DNA of 64,000 nucleotides from Longimicrobiales bacterium (GCA_041690395.1 JAWLHJ010000007.1:32001-96000); one strand, 5' to 3'. Numbered from the stretch's first letter, positions 7,577-63,087 are shown. Made by a program: numbers and translations. Notes: generated by a model not told the origin, from the sequence alone.

Positions 7577-7696
7577 CGGCCCTCGGTGTAGGTGTGCGGC
7601 TGGAATCCGGCTCGCAATATGGAGCGGGGGCCAGGAGGGCGCGACCATGTAGGATCCGGGGCTGGCACGCCGGCCTTAAGTCCCTCTGACTCTAGG

Positions 7697-7820
7697 ATTG
7701 CATGGATCTGTACAAGCGGCACGCGATTGCATAATTTAATGCACTTCAAGTTCTGGATCGGAGCCACCCATCGTGCATCTTTTCGTACACGGCGACGCGA
7801 CTTGCCCGAATCCATGCAAT
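7697..7820. promoter_or_regulatory. Array of four 18-bp palindromic operator-like boxes between the divergent PQQ operon and satD
   Basis: TTGCA-TGGATCTG-TACAA 7698-7715; TTGCA-TAATTTAA-TGCAC 7727-7744; GTGCA-TCTTTTCG-TACAC 7773-7790; TTGCC-CGAATCCA-TGCAA 7802-7819; 29-bp spacing within each pair. Confidence 0.75.
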
Positions 7821-7855
7821 ACGGGCCCGTCCGGGCATCCCTTCGGCACCCCGCG

Positions 7856-8488
7856 ATGAGCTACTTTGCGATCATCGGGGACCTCGTCGGCTCGAGGCAG
7901 ATGAACGACCGCGCCGCGGTGCAGCTTCGCTTCCGCGAGGCGGTTGACGAAGCCAACGATGTGGCCCACGGACATCTCACCGTGCCTCTCAAGCTGACGG
8001 CGGGTGACGAAGTGCAGGGCATCACGGGCCGGCCGGAGACGCTCGTCGAGATCATGGTGCGCGTGTCCGACGCCCTCGCGCCAGCGAGCCTCGCCTGGGG
8101 TTGGGGATACGGCGAGCTCACCACGGACCTGGTGGACGACGTCTCGTTGCTGGACGGACCCTGTCTGCACCGAGCCCGTGACGCTGTGGAGGCGGCGAAG
8201 AAGGCCTCGAGCTGGCTCGAAATTTCGGGTTTCCCCGAGCCTTCCGCCCAGGTCCTGTCTGCGTTGATGAACCTCATCGGCTCCGTTCGCGCGGGCTGGA
8301 CGGAACGGCAAGCCGAGGTCGTACGGGCCTCCAGGGGGAGGCTGCAGGTGGAGGCGGCGGAGCTGCTGGGAGTCGGCCCATCGACCGTAAGCCGCGCACT
8401 GAGCTCCGCACATGCTTCCCGTGTGTTCGCTGGAGAAGAGGCAGCCAAGGCGCTCCTGGAGAGCCTGACCTGGAGCCGCACCCCGTGA
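7856..8488 (+). CDS. SatD family protein (nucleotidyl-cyclase-like N-domain + C-terminal HTH)
   Basis: YFAIIGDLVGSR, TAGDEVQG, DGPCLHRARDA, WTERQAEV, Q.EAAELLGVGPSTVSRAL. Confidence 0.8.
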   Translation: MSYFAIIGDLVGSRQMNDRAAVQLRFREAVDEANDVAHGHLTVPLKLTAGDEVQGITGRPETLVEIMVRVSDALAPASLAWGWGYGELTTDLVDDVSLLDGPCLHRARDAVEAAKKASSWLEISGFPEPSAQVLSALMNLIGSVRAGWTERQAEVVRASRGRLQVEAAELLGVGPSTVSRALSSAHASRVFAGEEAAKALLESLTWSRTP

Positions 8489-9309
8489 CGATCCTGGATA
8501 CACTCGAGCGCCTCGACCTCCTGGTGCCGCTCCTTACCGCGCACCTGTTGGCCGACTTCGTGTTCCAGACCGACCGGATGGCGGCGGGCAAGGACCGATG
8601 GGGTGCTCTGCTGGGCCACGTGACGGTCGTGGCGATCACGAGCTGGGCTCTGATCGGCCACGTGGGTGCCGTGCAGCTGATCGTCCTCGTTTCGCTGCTC
8701 CATCTCCTGATCGACATGGCGAAGACCACGGTGGAGCGACTGGCATTGACCGGCCGCGGGGATGACGCTTCGGAGCTGGCGTCGGGGTTCTGGCCTCGGA
8801 ACGGTCGTCCGACGCTGTTCCTGGGCGATCAGGCGCTCCACGTCGTGTCCCTGGTCGTCGCCGTGCAGGTGACGGCCGGGGTGCCGTTCCTCTCCGTTCC
8901 TCCTCCGGACGGGGGTATCTGGGCGGCCGCGCTCGGCCCCTCGTACCTCCGCTTCCTCGTGCTCGTGTCGGGCTGGGTCGTCGCCACCACGGGCGCCGGG
9001 TACTTCTTCGCCCAGTTCCTCGAACGCTTCGAGACCCAGCTGGAGCCTGATCAGCGTGGCGGGCTCTCGAAGGGCGGGTATTGGATCGGCGTGACCGAGC
9101 GGTCCCTCATCTACCTCTTCATCCTCGTCGGCGAGCCGACGGGCATCGGCTTCCTCGCCGCCGCCAAGTCCGTCTTCAGAATCGGGGAGCTGAGAGAGTC
9201 GAAGGACCGAAAGCTGGCCGAGTACATCCTGATCGGCACGTTGCTCAGCTTCGCCGCGGCGATGGTGGTCGGTCTCGCGACCCGGGCGGCGCTCGACGCG
9301 TTGCCGTAA
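8485..9309 (+). CDS. DUF3307 (SatE-like) polytopic membrane protein
   Basis: AHLLADFVFQT, HLLID, DQALH, GYWIGVTER, AAKSVFR, EYILIGTLLSF; GTGA overlap with satD. Confidence 0.8.
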   Translation: MTILDTLERLDLLVPLLTAHLLADFVFQTDRMAAGKDRWGALLGHVTVVAITSWALIGHVGAVQLIVLVSLLHLLIDMAKTTVERLALTGRGDDASELASGFWPRNGRPTLFLGDQALHVVSLVVAVQVTAGVPFLSVPPPDGGIWAAALGPSYLRFLVLVSGWVVATTGAGYFFAQFLERFETQLEPDQRGGLSKGGYWIGVTERSLIYLFILVGEPTGIGFLAAAKSVFRIGELRESKDRKLAEYILIGTLLSFAAAMVVGLATRAALDALP

Positions 9310-17866: not shown

Positions 17867-20434
17867 ATGCCCGACCGTCTACCCGAGCCTCGCGCCACCC
17901 TGCCCGACCTTCCCGTCGTTCCCGTCCTCGACGACGTGGCGCGGGCCCTGGCCCACCATCGCGGTGCGGTGCTCGTGGCTCCGCCCGGTGCAGGAAAGAC
18001 CACCCTCGTGCCGTTGGCGCTTCTGGACGTCGAATGGCTGGGGAAGCAGAAGATCATCGTTCTCGAGCCGCGCCGTCTGGCCACCCGGTCGGCCGCCCGG
18101 CGCATGGCCTCGCTGCTCGGCGAGGACGACGCCGGCGGAACCGTGGGCTACCGGGTGCGGATGGACACGAAGGTCGGACCCCGCACCCGCATCGAGGTCG
18201 TGACGGAGGGGGTGCTTACGCGCATGCTGCTCGACGACCCGGGGCTAGCCGGTGTCGGGCTGGTCGTCTTCGACGAGTTCCACGAGCGGTCGTTGCACGC
18301 CGACCTGGGGCTCGCGCTCACGCTGCAGTCCCGTCAGTTGCTGCGCGACGATCTGCGCCTTCTGGTGATGTCCGCGACGCTCGATCCGGCGCCGGTCGCG
18401 GAGCTCCTGGGCGACGCGCCGATCGTGCGGAGCGAGGGGCGGAGCCATCCGGTGGAGACCCGGTTCCGGGACCGGCCGGTGGAGGGATGGATCGAGCCCA
18501 CGACGGTCGCCACGATCCTGGACGCGCTGGACCGAGACGAAGGGGACGTCCTGGTCTTCCTTCCCGGAGCGGGAGAGATCCGGAGGACGGCGGATCGGCT
18601 ACGCGAGGCGGGCCTCGCGCCCCAGGTCGACGTTCACCCGCTCTTCGGCGCGCTCCCCCGGGACGAGCAGGACCGGGCCATCGCGCCGAGCCCGCGGGGA
18701 CGAAGGAAGATCGTGCTCGCCACCGCGATCGCGGAGACCTCCCTCACCATCGAGGGTGTGCGCGTGGTGGTCGACAGCGGCCTCATGCGGGTTCCGCGCT
18801 TCGATCCGCGGAGCGGCATGACAAGCCTGGCTACGGTGACCGTGACGCGCGACTCGGCGGATCAGCGACGCGGACGCGCCGGTCGCACGGCGCCCGGCGT
18901 CTGCTACCGGATGTGGACCAAAGGGGAGGACCATGGCCTGGTACCGACCCGCAGGCCCGAGATCGAGGAGGCCGATCTGGCGCCGCTCGCCCTCGACCTC
19001 GCGGTCTGGGGCGCTCGTCCGGAGGAGCTGCGCTGGATGACGCCGCCGCCCGCGGCCTTGCTGGCCCAGGCGTCCGAGCTGCTCCGTGAGTTGGATGCCA
19101 TCGACGAGGACGGCGTGATCACCGGGCACGGCCGCGAGCTCGCGGGTGCGGGCGTCCATCCACGTCTGGCGCATATGCTCGTCCGGGGCCGGGAGCTCGG
19201 TCACGGGGGCGTGGCCTGCGACGTGGCCGCGCTGCTCGGCGACCGGGACATCCTGGACGGCCCGGGTCGCGCGCCGGACGCCGATCTCCGTCTCAGGGTG
19301 GAGGCCATGCGGCGAGCGCGGGCGCAGTCCGTCTCGCGGGTCGGGTCCGTCGGTGGCCAGCGCGTCCGGGGGGGCGGGCTCCACCGGGCCCTCAAGGAGT
19401 CGAGCCACCTGCGCCGCTCCCTCGGCGTTCCCGATCGCGACGGCGGCCCCGAAGAGGTGGAGCACGTCGGGCTCCTCCTGGGCTTCGCGTATCCGGACCG
19501 GATCGCGCGGCGGCGGGAGGGAAGTCGTGGGCGCTTCCTGCTCCGCAACGGGAAGGGGGCCGAGCTCGGCGACGGGGAAGGGCTCGGCGATGCCGAATGG
19601 ATCGTGGCCGCGGATCTGGACGACCGCGGACGGGACGCCCGGATCTTCCGCGCCGCGCCCGTCGACCAGGAGGAGATCGAGCGGCACTTCGCGGGTCACG
19701 TCCGGGTGGTGGAGGAGGTCACGTGGCGCGCGGACGCCGGCCGGGTCGAGGCCCGCCGCCGCGAGCTGCTCGGCGCGATCACCTTGCGGGAGGCGCCCCT
19801 GAGTGATCCCTCGAGAGACGCGCTCGTGGCCGCGCTCCTCGACGGGATCCGGGCGGAGGGAGTCGGGAGCCTGCCCTGGACGAAGGACGCCGAGCACCTC
19901 CGTGACCGATTGGCTTTCCTGCACGGGATCGATCCGGAGCGCTGGCCCGATCGCTCGGACGACGCTCTCCTCACGGGGCTCGAAGTCTGGCTCGTCCCCT
20001 TCCTGTCGGGCATCGCGTTCCCGCGCCGACTCGGAGACCTCGACCGGATCGACCTCCAGGAGGCGCTGCTCTCCGGTGTGGACTGGGGCGACCGGGCCCG
20101 GCTCGACGAATGGGCGCCCACCCACCTCGAGGTGCCGAGTGGCGCGCGCGTCCCGATCGACTACTCGGACCCGGAGGCCCCGGCGCTCGCGGTCAGGCTC
20201 CAGCAGGTGTTCGGCATGACCGAGACGCCGCGCCTCGGAGGCGGCCGGGTCCCGCTCACCATGAAGCTGCTGTCACCCGCCCACCGGCCGGTGCAGGTGA
20301 CGCGCGATTTGGAGAGCTTCTGGCGGGACGCGTACTTCGACGTCCGCAAGGACCTGCGGGGGCGATATCCGAAGCACCCGTGGCCGGAGGACCCTCTGGT
20401 GGCGGAGCCTACGAACCGGACGAAGCGGCGGTAG
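17867..20434 (+). CDS. hrpB: ATP-dependent RNA helicase HrpB
   Basis: APPGAGKTT, EPRRLA, DEFHER, MSAT, QRRGRAGR, LSPAHRPVQVT.DL..FW, GRYPKHPWP. Confidence 0.95.
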   Translation: MPDRLPEPRATLPDLPVVPVLDDVARALAHHRGAVLVAPPGAGKTTLVPLALLDVEWLGKQKIIVLEPRRLATRSAARRMASLLGEDDAGGTVGYRVRMDTKVGPRTRIEVVTEGVLTRMLLDDPGLAGVGLVVFDEFHERSLHADLGLALTLQSRQLLRDDLRLLVMSATLDPAPVAELLGDAPIVRSEGRSHPVETRFRDRPVEGWIEPTTVATILDALDRDEGDVLVFLPGAGEIRRTADRLREAGLAPQVDVHPLFGALPRDEQDRAIAPSPRGRRKIVLATAIAETSLTIEGVRVVVDSGLMRVPRFDPRSGMTSLATVTVTRDSADQRRGRAGRTAPGVCYRMWTKGEDHGLVPTRRPEIEEADLAPLALDLAVWGARPEELRWMTPPPAALLAQASELLRELDAIDEDGVITGHGRELAGAGVHPRLAHMLVRGRELGHGGVACDVAALLGDRDILDGPGRAPDADLRLRVEAMRRARAQSVSRVGSVGGQRVRGGGLHRALKESSHLRRSLGVPDRDGGPEEVEHVGLLLGFAYPDRIARRREGSRGRFLLRNGKGAELGDGEGLGDAEWIVAADLDDRGRDARIFRAAPVDQEEIERHFAGHVRVVEEVTWRADAGRVEARRRELLGAITLREAPLSDPSRDALVAALLDGIRAEGVGSLPWTKDAEHLRDRLAFLHGIDPERWPDRSDDALLTGLEVWLVPFLSGIAFPRRLGDLDRIDLQEALLSGVDWGDRARLDEWAPTHLEVPSGARVPIDYSDPEAPALAVRLQQVFGMTETPRLGGGRVPLTMKLLSPAHRPVQVTRDLESFWRDAYFDVRKDLRGRYPKHPWPEDPLVAEPTNRTKRR

Positions 20435-22946
20435 GGGGCGCCTCGGCTTCCGACTCCCGGGCCTCCTGCTCGATGGCCTCGGCTTCGCCGACGCGTCCGA
20501 GCTCCCTCAGCACCAAGGCGTAGTCCGTCAGGATGATCGGGTGGACCGGGCCGGAGCGCCTCAGGAGACCGACGGCTTCGCCGAACGCCTCCGCCGCACC
20601 GGGCCAGTTCTCCTGGAGCCTGCGCGTATTGGCCACCCCGAGAAGGGTGGACACGGCCGCGGGGTGATCCGGCCCGAGCCGGGTCTGACGGATCTCCGTC
20701 GCCCGGACCCACAGCGCCTCGGCCTCGGCGAGATTGCCCTGCTGCTGCCGGAGCGAGGCCAGATTGTTCAGGACCGTGGTCGTGAGGAGCTCCTCCTCGC
20801 CGAAGATCCGTGTGCGGAGCTCGAGCGCCTCGAGGAGATATGGCTCGGCCTCTTCCAACCGGCCCATGTCGGCCAGCATGCTGCCCAGATTCGCGATGGT
20901 CTGGACCGTCTGTGCGTTCTCCGGCCCGTACACCACCCGCTGGATCGGAAGGACCCGCTCGAAGAGCACCGAAGCCGAGTCGAAGAGGCGCATCGAGGCG
21001 TAGGTCGCCGCCAGCCCCTCGGTGGCCTCGAGGATCCCGGGGTGCCGGGGGTCCAGCTCGGGCTCATAGACCTCGAGGGCCCTCCGATAAAGTGGAATCG
21101 CGTCCTCGGGGCGGCCGAACCTGTTGTACCCGGTGGCCAGCCCGATCATCGACTCGCCTACCGCCTCGGCGTTGGGACCTCCCAGACGCTCCCGGAGGCG
21201 AACTCCCCGCTCGAGGGCCTCGACGGCCCGCGCGGAGTCTCCGAGGTCGGCCAGGACCAGGCCGCGCTCTTGCAGGCCGACGACCAGGGCGTGGGACAGC
21301 TCCGGCGTGCGACGCATGGACGGGCCGTCGGTGGTATCCACGACCGCCTCCACCTCGGCCATGAGGGTGTCGAGGACGGCGAACGCCTCGTCGTATTGGT
21401 CGGTGTATCGTAGGGCGCCGGCGAGCGAGTGAGCGATGGTGGCCCGGAGCTCGGGCGTGTCGGCCAGGTCGAGCGCCTCGCGATAGAGGCGCTCCGAGCG
21501 CTCGAAGTCGTCGAGCGCTCCGTAGCTACCCGCCATCACGTTCTTGAGTCGGGCCTGGAGCACGGGCTGCCCCACGAGCTCGGTGTCGATGCGCTCGACG
21601 CCCCGGTCGAGGAGCTCACGAGCGGTCGCCTCCTCGCCAAGTGAGTTCTGTGGATCGGACTCGCCGAAAAGGCCGACCAGGAAGTCCGAGACCTCCTCCG
21701 CCACCCGGGCCTCCTCGAGGGCCGAAGCCTCCGCGGCACGTGCCCTGAGCATACCGGTGGTCGCGGCCGCCGCGCCTCCGACCACCGCGGCGGTCGCGAC
21801 GAGTGCGGCCACCACCGCGGCCCGGTTCCGCCGGACGAACTTTCGGGTGCGGTAGGTCAGGGTCGGCGGGCGCGCCGAGATCGGCAGGGAGCCCTGGAAG
21901 GCCGCCACGTCCTGCATGAGCCGGTCCACGCTCGGGTAGCGCTCGGCGGGATCCCTCCGCATGGCGGTCAGAACGATCGTGTCCAGGTCGCCGGCGAGGC
22001 TCCTGTCTCCGGAAGCCACCGACGGCGGTTGGGGGTCGGAGTCCGTGATGCGGCGCGCGAGCTCGGCCGAGGTCGTGGCCGTGTCGTGTGGGCGCCGGCC
22101 CGTCAGCAGGAGGTAAAGGAGCCCGCCGAGCGCGTAGACGTCGGTGACGACGGTGGCCGGCTCGCCGGAGACCTGCTCGGGGCTGGCGAAGCTGGGCGAC
22201 ATGATGCGTGTGCCGGCCGCGTCCGGATCCCCGGGCTCGAGGAGCTTCGCGATCCCGAAGTCGAGGAGTCGAGGCGTGCCCGTCCGGTCCACGAGGATGT
22301 TTGCGGGCTTGATGTCCCGGTGGATGACCAGCCGCGCATGTGCGTGACGCACCGCGTCGCATATCTGGAGGAAGAGGTCGAGGCGGGCCTCGAGGTCAGG
22401 GGCGTCCTCCTCGCAGAAGCGGTCGACGGGGCGGCCATCGACGTACTCCATGACGACGTAAGGCACACCCTCGGGCGTGCTCCCGCCGTCCAGGAAGCGT
22501 GCGATCGCGGGATGCTCGAGGCCGGCCAGAATCCGGCGTTCGTTGCCGAAGCGCCAGGCCATCTCTTCGGAGTACAACCCGCCGGGCAGGAGCTTGACCG
22601 CCACGATCTGCTCGAAGTCCGCGTCTTCCCGGACGCCGAGGTAGACTACGCCCATGCCGCCCCGGCCGATCTCCTCCGTCAGGCGATAGGGCCCGATCTT
22701 CAGCCCCACGGCGCTCCCGGGCCTCGCGTCACCCTGCGCGGCGGCGACCAGGTCGCGCATGCGATCGGCGACCCGGGTCTCGGCGTGCGCCAGCAGGCTC
22801 TCGACCTCCGCGACGACCCGGGGATCGTCCCCGGCCGCGCGCCGCAGGTACCCGATGCGCTCTTCCTCCGGGAGGGACATCACCTCGGAGAAAAGGCGCT
22901 CGACGCGCGCCCAGACGTCGGGCCCAAGAGGTTCGCTCATGTTCAC
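20409..22946 (-). CDS. Membrane Ser/Thr protein kinase with C-terminal TPR array (ECF-associated type)
   Basis: GRGGMGVVY, VAVK, HRDIKPAN, DFGIAK, SPEQ, TM segment, TPRs. Confidence 0.92.
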   Translation of the reverse strand: MNMSEPLGPDVWARVERLFSEVMSLPEEERIGYLRRAAGDDPRVVAEVESLLAHAETRVADRMRDLVAAAQGDARPGSAVGLKIGPYRLTEEIGRGGMGVVYLGVREDADFEQIVAVKLLPGGLYSEEMAWRFGNERRILAGLEHPAIARFLDGGSTPEGVPYVVMEYVDGRPVDRFCEEDAPDLEARLDLFLQICDAVRHAHARLVIHRDIKPANILVDRTGTPRLLDFGIAKLLEPGDPDAAGTRIMSPSFASPEQVSGEPATVVTDVYALGGLLYLLLTGRRPHDTATTSAELARRITDSDPQPPSVASGDRSLAGDLDTIVLTAMRRDPAERYPSVDRLMQDVAAFQGSLPISARPPTLTYRTRKFVRRNRAAVVAALVATAAVVGGAAAATTGMLRARAAEASALEEARVAEEVSDFLVGLFGESDPQNSLGEEATARELLDRGVERIDTELVGQPVLQARLKNVMAGSYGALDDFERSERLYREALDLADTPELRATIAHSLAGALRYTDQYDEAFAVLDTLMAEVEAVVDTTDGPSMRRTPELSHALVVGLQERGLVLADLGDSARAVEALERGVRLRERLGGPNAEAVGESMIGLATGYNRFGRPEDAIPLYRRALEVYEPELDPRHPGILEATEGLAATYASMRLFDSASVLFERVLPIQRVVYGPENAQTVQTIANLGSMLADMGRLEEAEPYLLEALELRTRIFGEEELLTTTVLNNLASLRQQQGNLAEAEALWVRATEIRQTRLGPDHPAAVSTLLGVANTRRLQENWPGAAEAFGEAVGLLRRSGPVHPIILTDYALVLRELGRVGEAEAIEQEARESEAEAPPTAASSGS

Positions 22947-23057
22947 ATTCTACGGCCCTTCGGAGCATCCGGCATGTAGACGCCAGGCCGCGCGAGCTAC
23001 ACGCGCCTCCCCCGCGAGGCTACGCAGCCCTGGACGAACGCCGCGGGGCGTTGAATC

Positions 23058-23642
23058 GTGGACGACATGGACATTCCTCCACCGGACGAACGAGCCGACG
23101 TCACCGCCCTCATCCGCCGCCTCACCTCGGGGGACGAGGAAGCCCTCGACCGGCTGATTCCGCTCGTGTACGACCAACTCCGGGCCGTGGCCCACCGGAG
23201 ACTCCGCTCCGAGCGCACCGGTAACACGCTCCAGACGACGGCGTTGGTGCATGAAGCATACGCCCGCCTGGCGGGCGCGGAGCTGAGCCTGCGGGACCGG
23301 GCCCACTTTTTCGCCCTCGCGGCGCGCACCATGCGCAGGGTCCTGGTGGACGCATCCAGAGCTCGCCTGGCGGGGAAGCGCGGCGGTGGGGCCGAGGTCG
23401 TTCCAATCGGGGCGGCGGCGCTCGAGCTGGCGGACGGGCGCGACGCCGAACAGGTCCTCGAGCTGCACGAGGCGCTGGAACGGCTGGAGGCCCAGGATCC
23501 GCGCAAGGCGAAGGTCATCGAGGCCCACGTGTTCGCGGGGATGACCCGCGACGAGATCGCCGAGGCCGTGGGCGTCTCCACGCCGACGGTCGATCGGGAT
23601 CTCCGGATGGCGCGGGCCTGGCTGGCCCGGGAGCTGGCGTAG
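23058..23642 (+). CDS. ECF sigma factor, kinase-associated type
   Basis: LIPLVYDQLR, TLQTTALVHEAY, MRRVLVD, KRGG, TVDRDLRMARAWL. Confidence 0.92.
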   Translation: MDDMDIPPPDERADVTALIRRLTSGDEEALDRLIPLVYDQLRAVAHRRLRSERTGNTLQTTALVHEAYARLAGAELSLRDRAHFFALAARTMRRVLVDASRARLAGKRGGGAEVVPIGAAALELADGRDAEQVLELHEALERLEAQDPRKAKVIEAHVFAGMTRDEIAEAVGVSTPTVDRDLRMARAWLARELA

Positions 23643-26291: not shown

Positions 26292-26379
26292 CCCCATGTG
26301 TGCCACGTGGCGCGGCGTCCGCAGTGACCCGCCGACTCTCACTTCACGCATGCGGCCCGAGCGGGCCGAGGAGCACACG

Positions 26380-26583
26380 ATGCAGGCAATGTTCGCGCGG
26401 TTCTGGAGCGACGACTCCGGGCAGGGGCTCACCGAGTACGCGCTGATTCTGGCGCTGGTCTCGATCGGGCTCATCGCGGTTCTGGTGGTCTTCCGTGATG
26501 CCATCGGCGGCATCTTCGACCGGGTCGCCCAGGTTCTCCAGGGTGCGCCTTCGGAAGGCTTCACCCCGGGCGCCGGCGGCTGA
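26380..26583 (+). CDS. flp: Flp family type IVc major pilin
   Basis: FWSDDSG|QGLTEYALIL; GAGGAG RBS. Confidence 0.93.
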   Translation: MQAMFARFWSDDSGQGLTEYALILALVSIGLIAVLVVFRDAIGGIFDRVAQVLQGAPSEGFTPGAGG

Positions 26584-26710
26584 GCCGGACGCCCCGCCTT
26601 CGGTTGAACGCCCTCGGGCGTCGGGCGGCACCCGGGTCAGACCGGTGGTCGTCCGGCGCGCGGGGCGGGCCGGGGCACGCTTCCCCCCCATCCCCCCACG
26701 AGTCGATCCG

Positions 26711-27253
26711 ATGCCTTCGCTATCACCCATCTTCTCGGAGCTGCTGCCCGCGACGCTGATCGTCGTCCTCGGCCTGGCCGTGTGGTTCGACGTACGCGAG
26801 CAGCGGATTCCGAACGTGGTCACGGCGGGAGGCTTCCTCGCCTTCCTGGCCGCCCGCGCGGTCGTGGGTCCGGAGGCATTCCTCTCCGGTCTCGCCGGAG
26901 GCGTGGTCGGTCTCGTGCTCGGGATCGCGCTGTTCGCGGCCGGTGCGATGGGCGCGGGGGATGGAAAGCTGTTGGCGGCCGTCGGGGCCGCGCTCGGTCT
27001 CGAGGTCTTCCTCCTGTGTCTTCCCCTCATCGGCGCGTTCGGGGGATTCCTCGCGCTGGTGGAGGCCGGAAGGAGCGGGACGCTGATCGCGACGTTGCTG
27101 CGCTTCCGGCAGCTCCTCTTCTACGTGGTGACCTTCGGCCGCATCGGCGCGCGCAGGACGCTCGCCATGCCCGGTGCCGTCACGGTCCCCTACGGCGTCG
27201 CCGTCGCTGCGGGCGCGGCCACGGCGTGGCTCGGATGGGGACTCGGGCTATGA
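26711..27253 (+). CDS. cpaA: A24 prepilin peptidase (TadV/CpaA)
   Basis: FDVREQRIPN, GAMGAGDGKL, VPYGVAVA. Confidence 0.9.
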   Translation: MPSLSPIFSELLPATLIVVLGLAVWFDVREQRIPNVVTAGGFLAFLAARAVVGPEAFLSGLAGGVVGLVLGIALFAAGAMGAGDGKLLAAVGAALGLEVFLLCLPLIGAFGGFLALVEAGRSGTLIATLLRFRQLLFYVVTFGRIGARRTLAMPGAVTVPYGVAVAAGAATAWLGWGLGL

Positions 27254-27672
27254 GTCCCCGCTCGCTCGGCCTTTGGCGGTCCCGGAGCGGTCAGGCACTC
27301 ACCGAGTTCGCACTCGTCGTTCCGGTACTCCTGCTGATGATCCTGGGGCTCGCGGAGTTCTCACGCGCCTGGAGCACCAAGCAGGTCCTTACCGACGCCG
27401 CCCGTGAGGCACTCCGGAGCTCGGTCGTGGCCAACCCCGACTTCACCTACGAGGCGATGCGGTCCCTCGTCGACCAGGCGCTCGTCCGCGCCGCGCTCGA
27501 TCCGTCCAAAGCCGACGTCGCGGTGGACGGTTGGAAGGCCGGCACCGGCACGCCGGCCCGCATCCGCATCGACTACCTGTACGAGTTCGGCTTCCTCGGT
27601 CCCGTCGTGGGATGGGCCACCGGCGGCCGGAGTCTCGCCCTCACCACCTCCTTCGTCATGCGCAACGAGTGA
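27250..27672 (+). CDS. tadE: TadE-like minor pilin
   Basis: RSG|QALTEFALVVPVLLL..AAREALR. Confidence 0.85.
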   Translation: MSPRSLGLWRSRSGQALTEFALVVPVLLLMILGLAEFSRAWSTKQVLTDAAREALRSSVVANPDFTYEAMRSLVDQALVRAALDPSKADVAVDGWKAGTGTPARIRIDYLYEFGFLGPVVGWATGGRSLALTTSFVMRNE

Positions 27673-27685
27673 TCGGAAGACCCCT

Positions 27686-28528
27686 ATGAACACCTCAAGA
27701 ACATGGTGGATGCTCTTCGGGGCGGCCGTCTCCGGGCTTCTGGCCGGGTACGTCGCGCTGGTCTACGTGAGTGAGGAGCCGACGCCCCTGCAGGCGGCGA
27801 CCCCTTCGCGGACCATCGTGGTTGCTGCCCGGGATCTTCCCGCCGGGACCATCGTCAGCCGGGAGGACGTGGAGGCGGTGGCCTGGCCCGGCTCGGCGGT
27901 GCCCGAGGGGATCGCCCAGCAGGCCGGCGACGTCGTCGGCCGAGGGTTGATCGTGGAGGTTCGCAAGAGCGAGCCGATGCTGGCCTGGAAGATGGCGGAC
28001 CGGGAGGCCGGAGGCGGGCTCCCGATCACGATTCCCGAGGGGATGCGGGCCGTTTCCGTCGAGGTCGACGAAGTGGTGGGCGTTGCCGGCTTCGTTCTCC
28101 CCGGGACCCGGGTCGACGTCCTCGCGACGGTCATGCCCGGCACGGACCGGACCCAGACGACGACCCGGATCATCCTGCAGAACGTGCGCGCGCTCGCCGC
28201 GGATCAGCGCTATCAGCAGGACATCCAGGGCGAGCCGCAGTACGTGACGGTGGTGACGCTCCTGGTCACCCCCGAGCAGGCGGAGGCCCTCACGCTGGCC
28301 GCCACGGAGGGCCGCATCCAACTGGCCCTACGCAACACGCTGGACGCCGACGAGGTCGAGACCTCGGGACGGAGGATCATCTCGCTCCTGACCGTTGGGG
28401 GGCCGAGCGCGCCCCGCGCCACCTCGACACCCCGGCCGGTCACGCCGGTCGACCCGGAGCGTGTGATCGAGAGCTACGAAGGTGGTCAGAGAACCCTGCT
28501 GCGATTCGGAACCGGAGGCGGTCGATGA
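27686..28528 (+). CDS. cpaB: Flp pilus assembly protein CpaB/RcpC
   Basis: SAF domain VVAARDLPAG; GMRAVSV, GFVLPGTRVDV, LQNVRALA, LALRN. Confidence 0.92.
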   Translation: MNTSRTWWMLFGAAVSGLLAGYVALVYVSEEPTPLQAATPSRTIVVAARDLPAGTIVSREDVEAVAWPGSAVPEGIAQQAGDVVGRGLIVEVRKSEPMLAWKMADREAGGGLPITIPEGMRAVSVEVDEVVGVAGFVLPGTRVDVLATVMPGTDRTQTTTRIILQNVRALAADQRYQQDIQGEPQYVTVVTLLVTPEQAEALTLAATEGRIQLALRNTLDADEVETSGRRIISLLTVGGPSAPRATSTPRPVTPVDPERVIESYEGGQRTLLRFGTGGGR

Positions 28529-29811
28529 AGGGCTCGTGGAAGGTGGCGATTCTGGTGGTGGCGACGGTCCTGAGCACGGCCCGTCCGGCCTCGGCGCAGC
28601 GGTTCATCACCGAGCCGGAGGGCTCCGTGAGCCTGGCCAGGGGAACGTCGGCGGTGCTCGTGAGTCCGGTCCAGTTCAACCGGATCTCCATGGCGGACCC
28701 GGAGGTCGCCGAAGCGGTGGTGATGTCGCCGACCGAGGTCCTCATCAACGGCCGCAACCTCGGGAGCACGACGTTCGTGGTCTGGGACGAGGCGGGAGTT
28801 CGGAGGATCTACGGCGTGGAAGTCACGGCCGACGCAGGCGCCCTCGGACGGTCCTTCGCCACGCTCTTCCCGAACGAGACGATCGATGTCCAGGCCCGGG
28901 GCAACACCCTGATCCTCTCGGGGCCCGTCAGCTCGGCCTTCGTGGCCCGGCGCGCGCTCGAGCTGGCCGAAGGTACGGGGGCCGTCCTGATCAACAACCT
29001 GCAGACCCCCGCGCCGAGCCAGATCCTGTTGCACGTGCAGTTCGCGGAGGTCAGCCGGACCGCGCTGGCCGGTATGGGTAACCAGGTCGTCGACGTCCTC
29101 AACCCGCACGAGATCCACGAGAGCGGCGACTGGCGGGGGCAGACCGACTCGGATGGTGCCATCGAGCTCTCGCTCATCAACAGCAACGCACACCTGCGGA
29201 CCATCCTGAACGCGTTCCGGGAGAGCGGAGACTTCAGGAGCCTGGCGGAGCCGACGCTGCTCGCGCTCGACGGCGAGACGGCGTCGTTCCTGGCGGGCGG
29301 TGAGTTCCCCTTCCCGACGGTGCAGGGCGCCCAGAACAGCAACGCGGTGAGCATCGAGTGGCGGGAGTTCGGGGTGCGCCTCGACTTCACGCCCTCGGTC
29401 ACGAACATCGGAAACATCCGGCTCGACATCGCGCCGGAGGTGTCGTCGCTCGACTTCGCCAGTGGGCTCACGATCTCCGGCTTCCAGATGCCGACGATCC
29501 TGTCGCGGCGCACGGAGACGCAGGTCGAGCTCCGCGAGGGACAGCACCTGGTGATCGCGGGGCTGCTCGACCGGTCCATCCAGGAGAGCATCCGGAAGAT
29601 CCCGCTCCTCGGTGACATCCCGATCCTCGGTTCGCTGTTCCGGTCGTCCGACGACCGCCAGCAGGTGACCGAGCTCCTGGTGATCGTCTCGCCGCGGATC
29701 GTGGAGCCGGTGGACACGCGTCCCGACCTGCCGACCGGAGCTCCGGAGGACTGGGATTGGGATGACCGGCTCGCACCCGCCGACACGACGCGGACCGGGC
29801 CCGGGCGCTGA
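28525..29811 (+). CDS. cpaC: Tad secretin CpaC/RcpA
   Basis: LAEPTLLA..GETASFLAGGEFP, EVSSLDF, KIPLLGDIPILGSLF, ELLVIVSP. Confidence 0.93.
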   Translation: MKGSWKVAILVVATVLSTARPASAQRFITEPEGSVSLARGTSAVLVSPVQFNRISMADPEVAEAVVMSPTEVLINGRNLGSTTFVVWDEAGVRRIYGVEVTADAGALGRSFATLFPNETIDVQARGNTLILSGPVSSAFVARRALELAEGTGAVLINNLQTPAPSQILLHVQFAEVSRTALAGMGNQVVDVLNPHEIHESGDWRGQTDSDGAIELSLINSNAHLRTILNAFRESGDFRSLAEPTLLALDGETASFLAGGEFPFPTVQGAQNSNAVSIEWREFGVRLDFTPSVTNIGNIRLDIAPEVSSLDFASGLTISGFQMPTILSRRTETQVELREGQHLVIAGLLDRSIQESIRKIPLLGDIPILGSLFRSSDDRQQVTELLVIVSPRIVEPVDTRPDLPTGAPEDWDWDDRLAPADTTRTGPGR

Positions 29812-29841
29812 GCGCGGACTCAGGAAACGGAGAGCAAGATC

Positions 29842-31350
29842 ATGAGCGATTCGATGCGGAACGAGCGGAAGACCCTGTGGCGCCGGTGGCGGTCGGACCA
29901 GCGCGGCTCGGTATCGGTCATCGTGGCGCTCTCGATGTCCGCGCTGCTGGCTCTGCTGGCGCTCGGGATCGATCTGGGTGCTCTGTTCGACGCCCGCTCC
30001 GAGGCGCAACGCGCGGCCGACGCTGCCGCGCTCGCGGGAGCCAGTGCGTTTCTCGACTTCCAGCAGGCCCAGGCGCAGCAGGCCGCCGTGATCCGCGCCA
30101 CGGAGTTCGCGACGGGAAACGCGATCCGGAGTGAGCCGATCGCCCCGGAGGACGTGAGCGTCGCGGTCGATGTCGACGCCTCGACGGTCCGGGCCCGGGT
30201 GCAGCGAACCGGTGTGCCCACCTGGTTCGCGCGGCTCGTCGGAATCGACTCGGTCGACATCGGGGCCGAGGCCACCGCCTGGGCCGGGAGCGCCGGGGCC
30301 GCGCAGTGCGTGAAGCCGTTCGCGGTGCCCGACATGTGGGAGGAGCGCTCCGACGATGTGAACGGGAACCGCATCTGGGACGAGGGCGAGCGTTGGAGCT
30401 ACGACCCCGGGAGCGGCGACCGGTACGCGGGCTACAGCGGGGGCGGGAGTGGCGTCGATGAGACCGGCTACGGGAGCGGGTGGCGCGACGGGCGCGTGGA
30501 CGCCGATGGACAGCGGTTCGACGGCGACTACGGACGGCGCATCACCATCAAGGTCACGAACCCGCGCGACACGTTCGTCCCGTCGTTCTTCCTGCCCTGG
30601 GTGCTCCCCGGCGACGACGGGCAGGCGGAGTGCGGGTCCGGCCTGCCCGGCGGTGGCGGGAACGGCGGCGGTGGCAATGGAAACGGCGGTGGGAATGGGA
30701 ACGGTGGCGGTGGGAATGGCGGCGACCCTGACGGGGGCGACGGGGCGGCGGATCCGCCCGGCGAAGGAAATGGAGGTGCCCTCGGCTGGTTGAAGTGGTG
30801 GGAGAAGCGTGAAGACCTCGGCGTCCCGAGTGGTGGGGGAGGCGGGAACGGTGGTGGGGCCGGCGGCTCGGGCGGCGGCGGCGTCTCGGGCGGCACCGGT
30901 GGTGGTGTGCGTCGCGTGGACGGACCGCGCGGTGCGGCTGCTTATCGGCGAAACATCTGCTCCTGCAACCGCTCCATCATCGATCTCGACAGCGAATACC
31001 TCATCGAGCCGGGCAACATGGTCGGGCCCACGCATCAGGGCGTCAGTGCCCTGATCGCTATGGACCCGGACGCCTACTGGGACGACCGCACCGGCACCGT
31101 CGTGAGCGAGTACGGCATGGACAGCCCTCGCGTGGTCACGGTCGGCCTCTTCAATCCGGCCGAGATCAAGAAGCCCGGCCGCCAGTACATCCGCTTCAAC
31201 AACTTCGCCCGGGTCTTCATCGAGGAGCAGGCATCTCGCCAGGACCCGGTCACGGGCCGTTTCCTCTACTACGTGCGCGGAGCGGGGCTGGCCGGCCGGG
31301 CGGGTGAGACGACCGGCTCTCTCGTACGCGTGCTGCAACTCATCAAGTGA
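29842..31350 (+). CDS. TadG-like minor pilin/adhesin with a Gly-rich insertion
   Basis: QRG|SVSVIVAL..IDLG..AQRAADAAALAGA; Gly/Asn-rich insert; C-terminal LVRVLQLIK. Confidence 0.8.
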   Translation: MSDSMRNERKTLWRRWRSDQRGSVSVIVALSMSALLALLALGIDLGALFDARSEAQRAADAAALAGASAFLDFQQAQAQQAAVIRATEFATGNAIRSEPIAPEDVSVAVDVDASTVRARVQRTGVPTWFARLVGIDSVDIGAEATAWAGSAGAAQCVKPFAVPDMWEERSDDVNGNRIWDEGERWSYDPGSGDRYAGYSGGGSGVDETGYGSGWRDGRVDADGQRFDGDYGRRITIKVTNPRDTFVPSFFLPWVLPGDDGQAECGSGLPGGGGNGGGGNGNGGGNGNGGGGNGGDPDGGDGAADPPGEGNGGALGWLKWWEKREDLGVPSGGGGGNGGGAGGSGGGGVSGGTGGGVRRVDGPRGAAAYRRNICSCNRSIIDLDSEYLIEPGNMVGPTHQGVSALIAMDPDAYWDDRTGTVVSEYGMDSPRVVTVGLFNPAEIKKPGRQYIRFNNFARVFIEEQASRQDPVTGRFLYYVRGAGLAGRAGETTGSLVRVLQLIK

Positions 31351-32667
31351 GCGACGACATGAACGGCTTCGAACACGACGGATCGCGGCAGCACGGTGCG
31401 CCCCAGCAGCTCGGGGCCGTGCTGGTGTCATCCGACGAGCGGATCCGGGACACCGTGTTCCGATGCATCCAGGACCTCGGGCTGCCCCTTCAGGTGGGCC
31501 TCGAGATCACGGCACCCGAGCGACCGCTTCATCCGGAGCACGTCGAGCGGCTGCGCGCGAGCAACCCGCACGTCGTGCTGCTCGACATGGCCAGGGACCC
31601 CGAAGGCTCGATACGGGCGGCCGCGGCCATCGCCGCCGGTACCCCTCGTGCCGCCATCGTGGGGGTCGGACCGGAGCTCGAGTCGTCTCGGTTGCTCGAC
31701 GCCATGCGTGCAGGCCTGGTGGAGTATCTGCCGCAGCCCGTGGACGCGGCACAGATGGCGGATGCGCTATCGAGGGTCATGAGGAAGCGTGGTTGGGGCG
31801 ACGTGGCCGACGGCCATCGCCTCGGGAAGCTACTCGCCTTCTTCTCTCCCAAGGGTGGATCGGGATCGACGTCCGTGGTCACCAACGTCGGGATCGAGCT
31901 CCACCGCATGACCGGCCGCAAGACGCTCCTGGTGGATCTGGACCTCGAGCTCGGCGAGATCGCGTCGCTCCTCGGCGTGCGGCCGCGGTTCCACTTCGTG
32001 GATCTCGTCCGGAACTTCCACCGGATGGACGCGGACCTGCTGGCCTCCTACATCGAGAGCCACGAGTCCGGCGTCCAGGTGCTGTCGGCCCCGTTCGAGC
32101 CCGAGATGGCCGAGGCGGTGACCGGTGAGCAGATCGGGCGGATTCTGGCGTTCCTCCGCAACCACTACGACTACGTCCTGGTCGATACCTCGAAGTCGCT
32201 CGCGCCTCCCGCGCTCGCGGCCTTGCAGGCGGCCGACCCCATCGTCCTCGTGACGAACATGGACGTCCCGTCGCTCCGGAACATGAAGCGTTGCCTGCCG
32301 ATCCTCGACAAGGTGACCGGCGGCGACGCCGAGCGACTTCGCCTCGTCGTGAACCGGTACAACCCGAAGAGCCTGGTTCGCCTCGAGGATCTCGAGGAGA
32401 CACTGGGCCTCGAGGTCTTCCACACGCTCACGAACGACTACGAGACCGTCATCCAGGCGAGCAGCACCGGTCGTCCGCTCGTGCTCGAGGGCGGCTCGCG
32501 GTATGCGGAGGAGCTGGGTGCGCTCGCGCGCAGCATCGCCTACGGACCCGGCGGGGGGACGGCGACCAAGCCGTCCCTGGTGAAGCGCCTGTTCGGTGGG
32601 CTCCGGTCCTCGTCCGGAACGCGGACCTCCGTGCCGCTGGGCGCGGCGCCGGTGGAGGCATCGAACC

Positions 32668-32675
<8 letters not shown>
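31347..32675 (+). CDS. cpaE: CpaE/TadZ (receiver-like domain + MinD/ParA-like ATPase)
   Basis: Degenerate receiver; [27 protein letters not shown]. Confidence 0.88.
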
Positions 32676-34080
<1,405 letters not shown>

Positions 34081-34092
34081 GGAGGGTCGACG

Positions 34093-35070
34093 ATGCCACG
34101 CCCCGAACCCTGGATGCTCGCCCTCCTGGCCGCTCTCAGCGCCGCGCTTGCCGTGTTCGTGCTGTTTCAGGCCTTCATGGTGCTCCGCGAGTGGCGGATA
34201 CGACGCGACGCGCTGGCGTCCCTGGGCCGGGCCGACCGTCCACGGAGCGACACGCAGTCGACCACCTCCGTCGTTCGGCAGGGCGACGTGGAAGACGACG
34301 TGCTCGTCGCTCTGGGTGACCGTGTTCCGCAGCTGTGGGACCTGCACCACGCGTTGAGTCAGTCCGGTCTGGGCTGGACGCTCGGCGGGTTCGCGACCCG
34401 GACTCTGGTCGCCGCGGCCGCAGGAGGGTTGGTGGGCTTCGTCCTGTCGGGTCCCATGCTGGCGCTCGCGGTGGCCCTGTTCGGCGGCATGGCTCCCTAT
34501 ATGCTCGTCCGCTGGAAGCGGACCCGGCGGATTCTTTCGCTCGAGAGCCAGCTCCCCGACGCGATCGACCTGCTCGCACGTGCCGTGCGCGCGGGACACC
34601 CGCTCTCCGAAGGTCTGCGCATGGCCGCGGAGGAGGCCCAGGACCCGCTGGCGTCCGAGTTCCGGATCACCTTCGACGAGCAGAAGTTCGGCCTCCCGTT
34701 CGAAGAGGCGCTGCTCGGCCTCGGCGACCGGGTGGAGATCGTGGACATGCGGATCCTCATCACGGCGATCCTCGTCCAGCGTGAGGTCGGGGGAAATCTC
34801 TCCGAGATCCTCGACCAGATCGCGGAGACCATGCGGGCGCGATTCACGCTCAAGCGACAGGTCCGCGTCTATACCGCACAGGGGCGGATGAGCGGCTACA
34901 CACTGGCGGCGCTACCGGTCGTGGTCGGCTTCGTCATCACGCTCATCAACCCGAGCTACATGACGACGCTGTTCCAGGAGCCCCTGGGTCAGGCCCTGCT
35001 CGGCGGCGCGGTCCTCCTCCAGGGGATCGGATTCCTCTGGATCCGTCGCATCGTCGACGTCCGGTACTGA
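34093..35070 (+). CDS. tadB: TadB platform protein
   Basis: QLPDAIDLLARAVRAGH, QREVGGNLSEIL, TAQGRMSG. Confidence 0.92.
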   Translation: MPRPEPWMLALLAALSAALAVFVLFQAFMVLREWRIRRDALASLGRADRPRSDTQSTTSVVRQGDVEDDVLVALGDRVPQLWDLHHALSQSGLGWTLGGFATRTLVAAAAGGLVGFVLSGPMLALAVALFGGMAPYMLVRWKRTRRILSLESQLPDAIDLLARAVRAGHPLSEGLRMAAEEAQDPLASEFRITFDEQKFGLPFEEALLGLGDRVEIVDMRILITAILVQREVGGNLSEILDQIAETMRARFTLKRQVRVYTAQGRMSGYTLAALPVVVGFVITLINPSYMTTLFQEPLGQALLGGAVLLQGIGFLWIRRIVDVRY

Positions 35071-35071
35071 G

Positions 35072-36010
35072 GTGCTGATCATGCCCTATCTGGTCGCGAT
35101 CCTGGCGGGCGCGTGCGTGACGCTCCTTCTCTACGGCCTCTACGAGCTGGCCGCGGCTCCCACGCGCGCGGTCACCCGGGAGATCGAGGAGATCCGGAGC
35201 TTCAATCCCAGTCCCTTCGGCGCGACGTCTCGTCGCCGCCGGCAGTCCCGGAAACAGCAGCTCGGCGACGTCATCCGGAAGCTCGGGGCGCACGTGGAGC
35301 GTGGCGGCCTCGATCTCGAGGGGTGGGCCCGGCGCCTCGTGCAGGCCGGATACTGGAGCCCGGACGCCACTCGGATCTTTTTCGGGGCCCGGGTGGCCGT
35401 GGCCGCCAGTTTCGCCTTCGCCGGTCTCGGAACCGGCGTCATGCTCGACGCCCGGCTCTTCGCCATGCTCGTGCTGGCGGTCTGGCTGGGCGGATGCGGA
35501 TGGGTCCTCCCAGCGTGGTACGTGCTCCGGAAGCGGAACGCGCGGCGCACCGAGATCCACCGCACGCTCGCCGACGCCCTCGACCTCCTCGTGGCGTGCG
35601 TGGAAGCCGGCATGGGTCTGAACCAGGCGATGGTGCGGGTCGCCGACGAGATCCGGAACCTGAGCCAGGCGCTGGCCGAGGAGCTCTCCATGGTCAACCT
35701 GGAGATCCGGGCGGGCACGTCGCGCTCCGACGCGCTTCGAAACCTCGGCGCCCGAACGGGCATCGACGACGTCGAGGCCCTCGTTTCCACACTCATCCAG
35801 ACGGACCGTTTCGGCACCTCGGTCGGACGCGCGCTCCGCGTGCAAGCGGGTACGCTGCGGCAGAAGCGGCGTCAGCGCGCGGAGGAGGCCGCGGCAAAGA
35901 CCACGATCAAGCTGATCTTCCCGCTCGTGTTCTTCGTCTTTCCGGCGCTGTTCGTCGTGATTCTCGGGCCGGCCGTGATCCAGGTGATCCAGGCTCTGGG
36001 GGACATGTAA
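35072..36010 (+). CDS. tadC: TadC platform protein
   Basis: DALDLLVACVEAGMGL, Q.DRFGTSV, AEEAAAK..KLIFPL. Confidence 0.92.
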   Translation: MLIMPYLVAILAGACVTLLLYGLYELAAAPTRAVTREIEEIRSFNPSPFGATSRRRRQSRKQQLGDVIRKLGAHVERGGLDLEGWARRLVQAGYWSPDATRIFFGARVAVAASFAFAGLGTGVMLDARLFAMLVLAVWLGGCGWVLPAWYVLRKRNARRTEIHRTLADALDLLVACVEAGMGLNQAMVRVADEIRNLSQALAEELSMVNLEIRAGTSRSDALRNLGARTGIDDVEALVSTLIQTDRFGTSVGRALRVQAGTLRQKRRQRAEEAAAKTTIKLIFPLVFFVFPALFVVILGPAVIQVIQALGDM

Positions 36011-62350: not shown

Positions 62351-62940
62351 GCCTCCTCCTCCGGCAGCTCCTCCGACAACTCGCGGTGCAGCCAGGCGCG
62401 GGCCTTCACCCAGTCTCGCTGGACGGTGCGGCGGGTGACACCGAGCGCCTCGGCGATCTCCTCGTCCTGCAGGCCCCCGAAATACCGGAGCTCCACCACC
62501 TGTCGGAGACGGGCATCGAGCGCGTCCAACCGGTCGAGGGCCTGGTCGAGCGCGAGGATCTGCTCCGGCTCCGAGCCCACCCCCGCGAGCTCCTCGTTTA
62601 GCGTCACCGGGACGGCGCCCCCTCCGCGCTTGCTGGCGGACCAGGCGCGGGCATGATCCACCAGAACCTGGCGCATGGCACGCGCCGCGACCCCGAGAAA
62701 GTGGCTCCGGTTCTCGGTGCCTTTCGGGGGACGCTGAACCAGCTTGAGGTACGCTTCGTTGACCAGCGCCGTCGGCTGGAGCGTGTGGCCGGCGCGCTCC
62801 CGTCCGAGCTGCGCGCGGGCGATACGCTGCAGCTCCTGATACACGAGCGGAAACACCCGCTCGAGCGCCTGGTCGTCTCCGTCCTCGGCCCGCTTCAGGA
62901 GAGCCGTGACGTCGCCGCCGTCGATGGGATGATCGGACAT
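62347..62940 (-). CDS. ECF sigma factor, kinase-associated type
   Basis: FPLVYQEL, HTLQPTALVNEAYLKL, KRGG, ELRYFGGL, TVQRDWVKARAWL. Confidence 0.93.
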   Translation of the reverse strand: MSDHPIDGGDVTALLKRAEDGDDQALERVFPLVYQELQRIARAQLGRERAGHTLQPTALVNEAYLKLVQRPPKGTENRSHFLGVAARAMRQVLVDHARAWSASKRGGGAVPVTLNEELAGVGSEPEQILALDQALDRLDALDARLRQVVELRYFGGLQDEEIAEALGVTRRTVQRDWVKARAWLHRELSEELPEEEA

Positions 62941-63087
62941 GGTCCCCACGTGGATACGATAGACAGGCATGATGGCGACGGCGATCGGCGATCGCCAGGG
63001 CTCCCCCCTACGGTGTCACACGGTTCACGGATTCAGCGCATCTCCCGGTAACGAGTGCGTGATCCACCTTCTGCCGAGGACAACTCC

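Follow-up and report, generated by a model that had tools for sequence, protein, structure and literature searches.

A two-gene cassette, satD-satE (satDE), was analysed in a 64,000-nucleotide stretch of Longimicrobiales DNA (GCA_041690395.1 JAWLHJ010000007.1:32001-96000), called the window here, whose first letter is position 1 of the coordinates given below. Both genes are on the plus strand; satD (7856-8488) encodes 210 amino acids, and satE (8485-9309), which has a GTG start, encodes 274. The genes overlap in the GTGA at 8485-8488, which indicates translational coupling. An initial annotation, made from the sequence alone, had described a coupled cassette between minus-strand genes. This description holds, and Pfam assigns one of the flanking minus-strand genes to the PQQ-dehydrogenase family, and the other encodes a beta-lactamase-family hydrolase. 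SatD belongs to the Pfam family SatD (PF16264), which it matched with an E-value of 1e-18 and 68 bits against a curated cut-off of 29. It has a palm domain (7856-8233, residues 1-126), delimited by structure and conservation, and a C-terminal helix-turn-helix (HTH; 8303-8407, residues 150-184) with the recognition helix PSTVSRAL. The HTH had already been noted, and weak Pfam profile matches at residues 150-187 agree with it; the motifs AIIGDLVGS, TAGDE and DGPCLHRAR listed for SatD are likewise present in the translation. SatE is a membrane protein with eight predicted membrane helices. It matched DUF3307 (PF11750; E 5e-17, 62.6 bits against a cut-off of 23) over residues 12-129 only. This part is a four-helix His/Asp bundle (8518-8871; H20, D24, H45, H73, D77, D115, Q116 and H119) and likely a metal site, and it is followed by an unnamed C-terminal membrane domain (C-domain; 8932-9306).

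The gene-essentiality evidence on the pair comes from streptococci. The streptococcal-type locus topA-satD-satE-trmFO (trmFO assigned by eye) encodes proteins homologous to both window proteins (PF16264/PF11750; 27% identity for SatD and 24% for SatE), with the same gene order and an overlap, and its satE contains both DUF3307 and the C-domain. According to PMC11323703, satD is the single accessory gene in the top quarter of essentiality in S. pyogenes and occurs in 178 of 249 genomes. The supplement of that study classes satD as Essential in all nine transposon sequencing (Tn-seq) sets and its operon partner as Non-essential in all nine, and its authors interpret the essentiality of satD as lineage adaptation. 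Two of the nine sets come from PMC4440532, in whose supplement the pair is named satD (E) and satE (NE) with an 8-bp overlap; its main text does not mention satD. In the S. agalactiae tables of PMC4881062, the log fold changes were -12.1/-9.7/-9.8 for satD and +0.36/+0.57/+0.28 for the overlapping downstream gene, in a gene context other than that of S. pyogenes. In vitro ratios in S. mutans were 0.41/0.21/0.21 for satD and 1.46/1.31/1.66 for satE (PMC5806208, table S2 part 1), and the mouse column of that table was near zero for both. The names satD and satE were not found in the S. sanguinis supplement.

Since the downstream satE is dispensable, polarity cannot explain the essentiality of satD. 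An antitoxin typically shows up as an accessory gene that is indispensable although the gene next to it can be lost, and an essential or costly satD beside a dispensable satE fits this pattern. SatD is therefore likely the antitoxin and SatE the toxin, which was one of the options of the initial annotation, and we consider it probable that SatD restrains a harmful SatE. The same annotation had compared the layout with Pycsar and CBASS, in which the synthase activates the effector. That direction predicts a dispensable synthase gene, whereas here the gene of the putative synthase is the essential one. Two further observations concern streptococcal satD: the small RNA rss03 of S. suis binds satD mRNA (PMC12005413), and SatD shows one of the largest differences between the cytosolic proteins of S. 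pyogenes M1global and M1UK (PMC10210942).

How SatD may act is suggested by its fold. The AlphaFold2 model of SatD had a predicted local distance difference test (pLDDT) score of 97, and residues 1-126 matched members of the palm superfamily with tied scores, namely guanylyl cyclase (Z 12.7), GTP cyclohydrolase III (12.5), AC2 (12.2), GGDEF (11.9), Panoptes OptS (11.8) and PycC (9.7). Against 3et6, 124 residues were aligned with Z 12.7 and a root-mean-square deviation (rmsd) of 2.5, and Rv1900c was matched by Foldseek with E 9e-5. The cyclase or palm fold proposed earlier was thus recovered in the model, and SatD looks like a palm nucleotide enzyme. In an alignment with 20 class III cyclase domains (HHalign; probability 40%, E 3e-4), D9 and D51 corresponded to Asp1 and Asp2, the metal-binding pair that had been picked out by eye. 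D9 is conserved in 341 and D51 in 347 of 348 homologues, and R108 is kept in 343 of 348 single SatD proteins. The conserved residues of the model form a metal/phosphate face (D9, S13, R14, R19, Q23 and G50-D51) and a partner face (Q54, T90, D100, H105 and R108). GGDEF diguanylate cyclases and GTP cyclohydrolase III (2qv6) are tied with the cyclases in fold score, and the SatD consensus TxGDEFQ resembles GGDEF; SatD differs from both in its second conserved face (Q54, D100 and R108), which would be supplied in trans, and in having no match to their Pfam families at E 0.1.

Ten natural SatD-SatD fusions (P0306, P0269, P0318, P0351, P0303 and P0374-P0378) divide these faces between their halves. 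The N-terminal halves keep D9, S13, R/K14, R19, Q23 and G50-D51 in 10/10 and have lost Q54, D100, H/Y105, R108 and W148 (0/10 kept; T90 in 1/10), and the C-terminal halves show the reverse pattern in 10/10. In single SatD proteins the same positions are kept in 321 to 347 of 348. The C1 and C2 domains of mammalian adenylyl cyclase split their site residues in a similar way. The reciprocal loss indicates one site built from two subunits and points to a composite nucleotide site across the SatD dimer that is under selection. The split does not separate catalysis from binding. Both HTHs are kept in the fusions and differ from each other (SSVSQ and STVxxH), and one fusion locus (L248:3179-5254) has an intact partner gene directly upstream. 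Another SatD protein, P0270, is fused to TPR repeats.

SatE gave a model that was entirely helical, with no strands and a pLDDT of 92. Fold searches found no clear match among solved folds (best Z 7.9; Foldseek E > 0.2), a sequence search of solved structures with SatE returned nothing, and a search of the ESM Atlas returned unnamed clusters only. A match to the HD region of Cas10d (Z 7.0) was within noise and was discarded. DUF3307 might be a YdjM/phospholipase-C-type hydrolase, but no search, none of them aimed at those families, pointed to this. Within the C-domain, G202, E205, R206, K228, R232 and S255 are present in 77/77 rows of the alignment, Y247 in 75/77 and T252 in 74/77. Positive-inside counts predict that the invariant residues lie in the cytoplasmic half of the membrane, and R206, K228 and R232 may form a basic pocket for a phosphorylated ligand.

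The C-domain has no Pfam, NCBIfam or PADLOC model, and yet it is the part of SatE that accompanies SatD. Among 144 loci, some of them duplicates, 61 had SatD with both partner domains in one open reading frame and 57 had SatD with the C-domain and no detected DUF3307, although some of these may carry a divergent one. The others comprised 13 with DUF3307 alone and no SatD, 8 with SatD alone, 4 whose partner is split and 1 that is interrupted by the end of a contig. In one family, 16 of 17 SatD-positive genomes have partners of about 185 amino acids without the His/Asp motif, and the partner in the 17th is longer and also has no DUF3307; partners of 118-135 amino acids exist as well. Short DUF3307-only proteins are found in phages (phrog_2470). 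From the short partners without the His/Asp motif and the DUF3307-only phage proteins, it follows that the C-domain is the obligate partner of SatD and that DUF3307 is an accessory module. The motifs HLLAD, HLLID and DQALH noted earlier in the partner are all present in the window; they are not the core of the module, because partners without His/Asp motifs are common. The domain picture given by Pfam is corrected accordingly: the domain that always stands with SatD is the one for which Pfam has no model, and DUF3307 also stands alone in phages. DUF3307 without the C-domain or SatD was seen at L101-L104, L106, L153, L155, L156 and L158-L162, of which five viral ones match phrog_2470. In P0162 a VanZ-like domain is fused to a segment that shares 67% identity with part of SatE, probably with its C-domain, and a VanZ-like gene lies just upstream of satD at L067:9417-9878.

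Loss of the two genes is asymmetric. Most loci were found through SatD, and the count in 301 genomes of the phylum is the only two-sided one. In these, the C-domain occurred in 27, SatD in 26 and both in 25. The single SatD-only case was at a contig end, and both C-domain-only cases were remnants, one beside a truncated satD and one without the G-E-R motif and K228; an intact C-domain without an intact SatD was thus not found in the 301 genomes. The opposite state, in which satD is intact and its partner is a stub, frameshifted or missing, occurred at L056, L067, L083, L258, L259 and L265. Where metagenome contigs left room downstream of satD, the C-domain was present at 50 of 53 loci.

SatD might also neutralise SatE directly, by binding as in type II systems or by nucleotidylation as in type VII systems, with no diffusible signal; Y247, T252 and S255 would be candidate acceptors. 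The strict translational coupling of the genes fits this explanation, as does the near invariance of the three hydroxyl residues, and nucleotidyl-transferases such as Thg1 belong to the palm superfamily (PMC12657218). However, about 1.9 kb of other DNA separates an intact satD from an intact partner at G146:C68:8045-11538 (L165, L203), and the partner lies upstream of satD at L222, L233-L236, L264 and L278, which shows that the pair can do without coupling. In addition, the conserved hydroxyls lie in a predicted membrane helix. We regard direct neutralisation as improbable.

Upstream of satD there are four 16-bp palindromic boxes. Box 1 (7699-7714; TGCAT-N6-GTACA) is a likely SatD site, box 2 (7728-7743; TGCAT-N6-ATGCA) follows it at 29 bp, and box 4 (7803-7818) follows box 3 (7774-7789; TGCAT-N6-GTACA) at the same distance, giving a spacing of 29/46/29. 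Boxes 1 and 4 form a 20-nt inverted repeat, and box 4 is nearly unchanged in the same-genus genome G002. GC content is 45% over 7696-7760 and 50% over 7696-7820, compared with 67% in the genes, and the AT-rich operator array that had been described is therefore confirmed. A pattern derived from the boxes themselves has 388 single matches in the 4.33-Mb genome, and only in this array do three or more boxes lie within 130 bp. The array scored 27.6, and the best of 20 shuffles scored 26.2. Of 80 related loci, with 4 others left out, 40 had a best upstream palindrome set that exceeded all 20 shuffles, and in these 40 loci 53 of 80 spacings were 28-29 bp. No sigma-70 promoter or terminator was found at the locus.

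The sequence of the boxes follows the HTH recognition helix across loci. STVSR[AT]L occurs with TGCA/TGYA, STVSES/SVVSES with TCGG/TCGC, ATVSKAL with TAGC and AVYKNI with TAACC. In the 58 of 80 loci that have a pair spaced by 27-30 bp, operator similarity was best explained by 9-residue windows starting at residues 169-177, with a partial rho of up to 0.42 when palm similarity was controlled. The median window had a partial rho of 0.03, and the palm given the helix 0.04. The related loci are kin and not independent, and no P value is claimed for the operator statistics. Because of this correspondence, SatD likely binds the boxes and, from their position, likely represses its own operon, as the initial annotation had suggested.

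These operators also bear on a different explanation, in which SatD is a nucleotide-sensing repressor that makes no product and in which loss of satD causes over-production of a SatE that is harmful at high dose. Besides the phased operators that co-vary with the HTH, the non-canonical catalytic positions of SatD agree with such a sensor, and so do the palm-plus-HTH layout that is common to the regulators 3onq and 9f80 and the milder phenotype in S. mutans. Against it, nearly all single proteins keep D9, D51 and R108, the fusions distribute these residues intact between their halves, and the invariant basic residues on the predicted cytoplasmic side of SatE point to a phosphorylated ligand. 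Sensor palms usually keep fewer such site residues. A pure sensor is unlikely on these grounds, though it deserves to be taken seriously.

Our preferred reading is that satDE is an undescribed, self-repressing toxin-antitoxin module of the guard type, in which SatD keeps SatE off through a nucleotide; we give it nearly an even chance. In the SatD dimer, one subunit would contribute D9/D51 with S13, R14, R19 and Q23 and the other Q54, T90, D100, H105 and R108, and this composite metal-nucleotide site would produce a small nucleotide. The nucleotide would bind the cytoplasm-facing basic pocket of the SatE C-domain (R206, K228 and R232) and hold SatE in an off state, while the HTH of SatD would repress the operon through the four phased palindromes. 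If SatD or the nucleotide were lost, through gene loss, depletion of nucleoside triphosphates, a phage sponge or a phosphodiesterase, SatE would be freed and repression might be lifted. That the restraint of SatE runs through a nucleotide made by SatD itself is a claim we put a little short of evenly balanced. A broader version, a widespread nucleotide-guarded killing module of bacteria and archaea in which SatD makes a non-canonical nucleotide and reads the same signal to repress the operon and the membrane toxin fires when the nucleotide is lost, is possible and rather unlikely. In that version the nucleotide would probably be neither cAMP nor c-di-GMP, judging from the His/Tyr and Gln/Asp residues at the base pocket.

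Several observations weigh against this module. SatD is not a canonical class III cyclase. It shares the palm fold and Asp1/Asp2 (D9/D51) with Rv1900c, Ma1120, mammalian adenylyl cyclase C1/C2 and PycC, but it has His or Tyr at position 105 in place of the Asn of VNxAxR, R108 stands one residue early, Leu47 occupies the position of the adenine-specifying Lys, the palm has only about 126 residues, and an HTH is fused to it. The class III motif line-up of the initial annotation therefore stands for the metal Asp pair and fails for the catalytic Asn/Arg and the specificity Lys. The palm-plus-HTH entries 3onq and 9f80, which we take to be non-catalytic regulators of the type labelled CdaR/PucR, also match SatD, as does the ATP-binding cyclase-like 6yii, and the divergent SatD of L105 has neither D100 nor R108. 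The fusions are apparently one clade (nine of them share 34-39% identity with P0306) and hence one event. All essentiality data are streptococcal, from proteins with about 27% identity to the window SatD; in S. mutans satD is costly and not essential; and the Tn-seq pattern would look no different if a membrane protein were simply de-repressed. A frameshifted satD stands beside an intact partner at L298, on a metagenome contig where an assembly indel may be the cause, and both genes are broken at L303/L325, where assembly errors are possible. Finally, neither SatD nor SatE has a PADLOC match at E 0.1 or an NCBIfam match at E 0.001, and a defence role is not supported by the genomic context.

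The context was surveyed in 296 of 335 neighbouring proteins, with crude gene calls and no background rate. No restriction, CRISPR, CBASS or Abi families were found among these neighbours, which included a few PIN, ParE, DUF433 and nucleotidyltransferase genes and four transposase/integrase genes. Linkage to defence islands, for which the initial annotation had proposed a test, was thus not seen. Two SatD-seeded scans and a search of phage records found no SatD in viral contigs or phage records; a scan seeded with the partner detected the pair on 12 viral contigs of IMG/VR. In a Pycsar- or CBASS-like defence, phage would activate SatD and its nucleotide would switch the membrane effector on. 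The synthase-plus-membrane layout, the presence of PycC (7r65) among the fold matches, and the IMG/VR contigs, with an integrase and a helicase nearby in L089, speak for such a system. The essentiality of the putative synthase gene is the opposite of what it predicts, and this, together with the PADLOC result and the neighbours, makes it very improbable. On the IMG/VR contigs L089-L100, the pair is followed by a helicase-like gene of 720-750 amino acids, and in L089 a tyrosine integrase is near. A further viral contig encodes a divergent SatD (L105:7050-7990) with a GDSFQ motif and long, near-perfect repeated upstream sites.

The SatD family is large and spans bacteria and archaea. The SatD profile at E 0.001 matched 5,784 clusters (50% identity), some probably through the HTH alone, and SatD was found on 3 haloarchaeal plasmids. 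Named close homologues are from Gemmatimonadota/Longimicrobiales. The pair is patchy: it is present in 7 of 61 relatives, in 26 of 301 genomes from the phylum and, in a sample of 401 genomes around a Halanaerobiales genome, in 58. The cassette sits in housekeeping settings, such as biotin ligase, pantothenate kinase and groESL genes (birA-coaX-groESL, 12 loci), lolA/rarA, ilvH/ilvC and polysaccharide (EPS) loci, and in S. agalactiae and S. mutans satDE belongs to the ffh operon. The name sat implies acid tolerance, and a housekeeping function of this kind or in the membrane would suit the ffh operon and the birA-coaX-groESL region, as well as the presence of the pair in 17 of one family's 125 genomes. 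The pair is nevertheless accessory in S. pyogenes, in the phylum and in the Halanaerobiales sample, its operons are unrelated to one another, and satE is dispensable. Such a function is, in our view, most unlikely.

satDE is a member of SatD/DUF3307 and is not Panoptes, Pycsar or a canonical class III cyclase. Panoptes OptS/OptE (mCpol plus S-2TM-beta; PMC12657218) and PanDA (bioRxiv 10.64898/2026.08.10.743972) resemble satDE as two-gene operons with a membrane partner. OptS (9mnr) and SatD share the palm fold and two Asp residues at catalytic positions (Z 11.8, rmsd 2.3 over 103 residues). The systems may also share an inverse logic, with harm arising when the upstream function is lost, which for satDE is seen in the tables for streptococcal homologues. 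In contrast to OptS, SatD has its own Pfam family, no mCpol match at E 0.1, an HTH and an operator array. The Panoptes effector has two transmembrane helices and a soluble nucleotide-binding domain, whereas SatE is multi-pass and helical with no beta-barrel, CARF or SAVED domain. CBASS linkage was not seen among the scanned neighbours of satDE. The word SatD is absent from the main text of PMC12657218. The palm-like domain and C-terminal HTH of 3onq and 9f80 are shared with SatD; unlike these, SatD keeps both metal Asp residues, has its likely array nowhere but at its own operon and is accompanied by a single membrane partner.

Streptococcal satD and satE were named after the S. mutans ffh operon, and in the publications consulted they are treated as acid tolerance or lineage adaptation genes and not as a toxin-antitoxin pair. 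Neither a mechanistic study of SatD/SatE nor a relevant paper linking SatD with DUF3307, mCpol or a cyclase was found in the openly searchable literature, which excludes subscription papers and bioRxiv supplements. The toxin-antitoxin reading, if true, would solve a published puzzle, the essentiality of an accessory 'acid-tolerance' gene in all S. pyogenes Tn-seq sets. Should the composite site prove catalytic, satDE would contribute a nucleotide signal and a membrane effector domain that are both new, together with a synthase doubling as operon repressor.

Both genes are under purifying selection, as estimated from the ratio of nonsynonymous to synonymous substitution rates (dN/dS) against the same-genus genome G002, which was 0.11 for satD and 0.23 for satE. 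Within satE, the DUF3307 half had a ratio of 0.29 and the C-terminal half one of 0.15. The initial annotation had called the cassette inserted. Its patchy occurrence among relatives agrees with this, but the GC content of satDE equals that of the genome, the gene next to it downstream is the same in the nearest relative, and 5 same-genus genomes were searched for an empty insertion site with no result. Because no such site was found and the GC content is that of the genome, satDE is not a recent arrival. Elsewhere in the window, 26350-36007 resembles a Flp/Tad pilus locus (gene calls judged by eye). A kinase-like gene adjoins an ECF-sigma-like gene at 20412-23639, and a second ECF-sigma-like gene is at 62350-62970; these genes cluster with a kinase-TPR and ECF sigma proteins of other loci.

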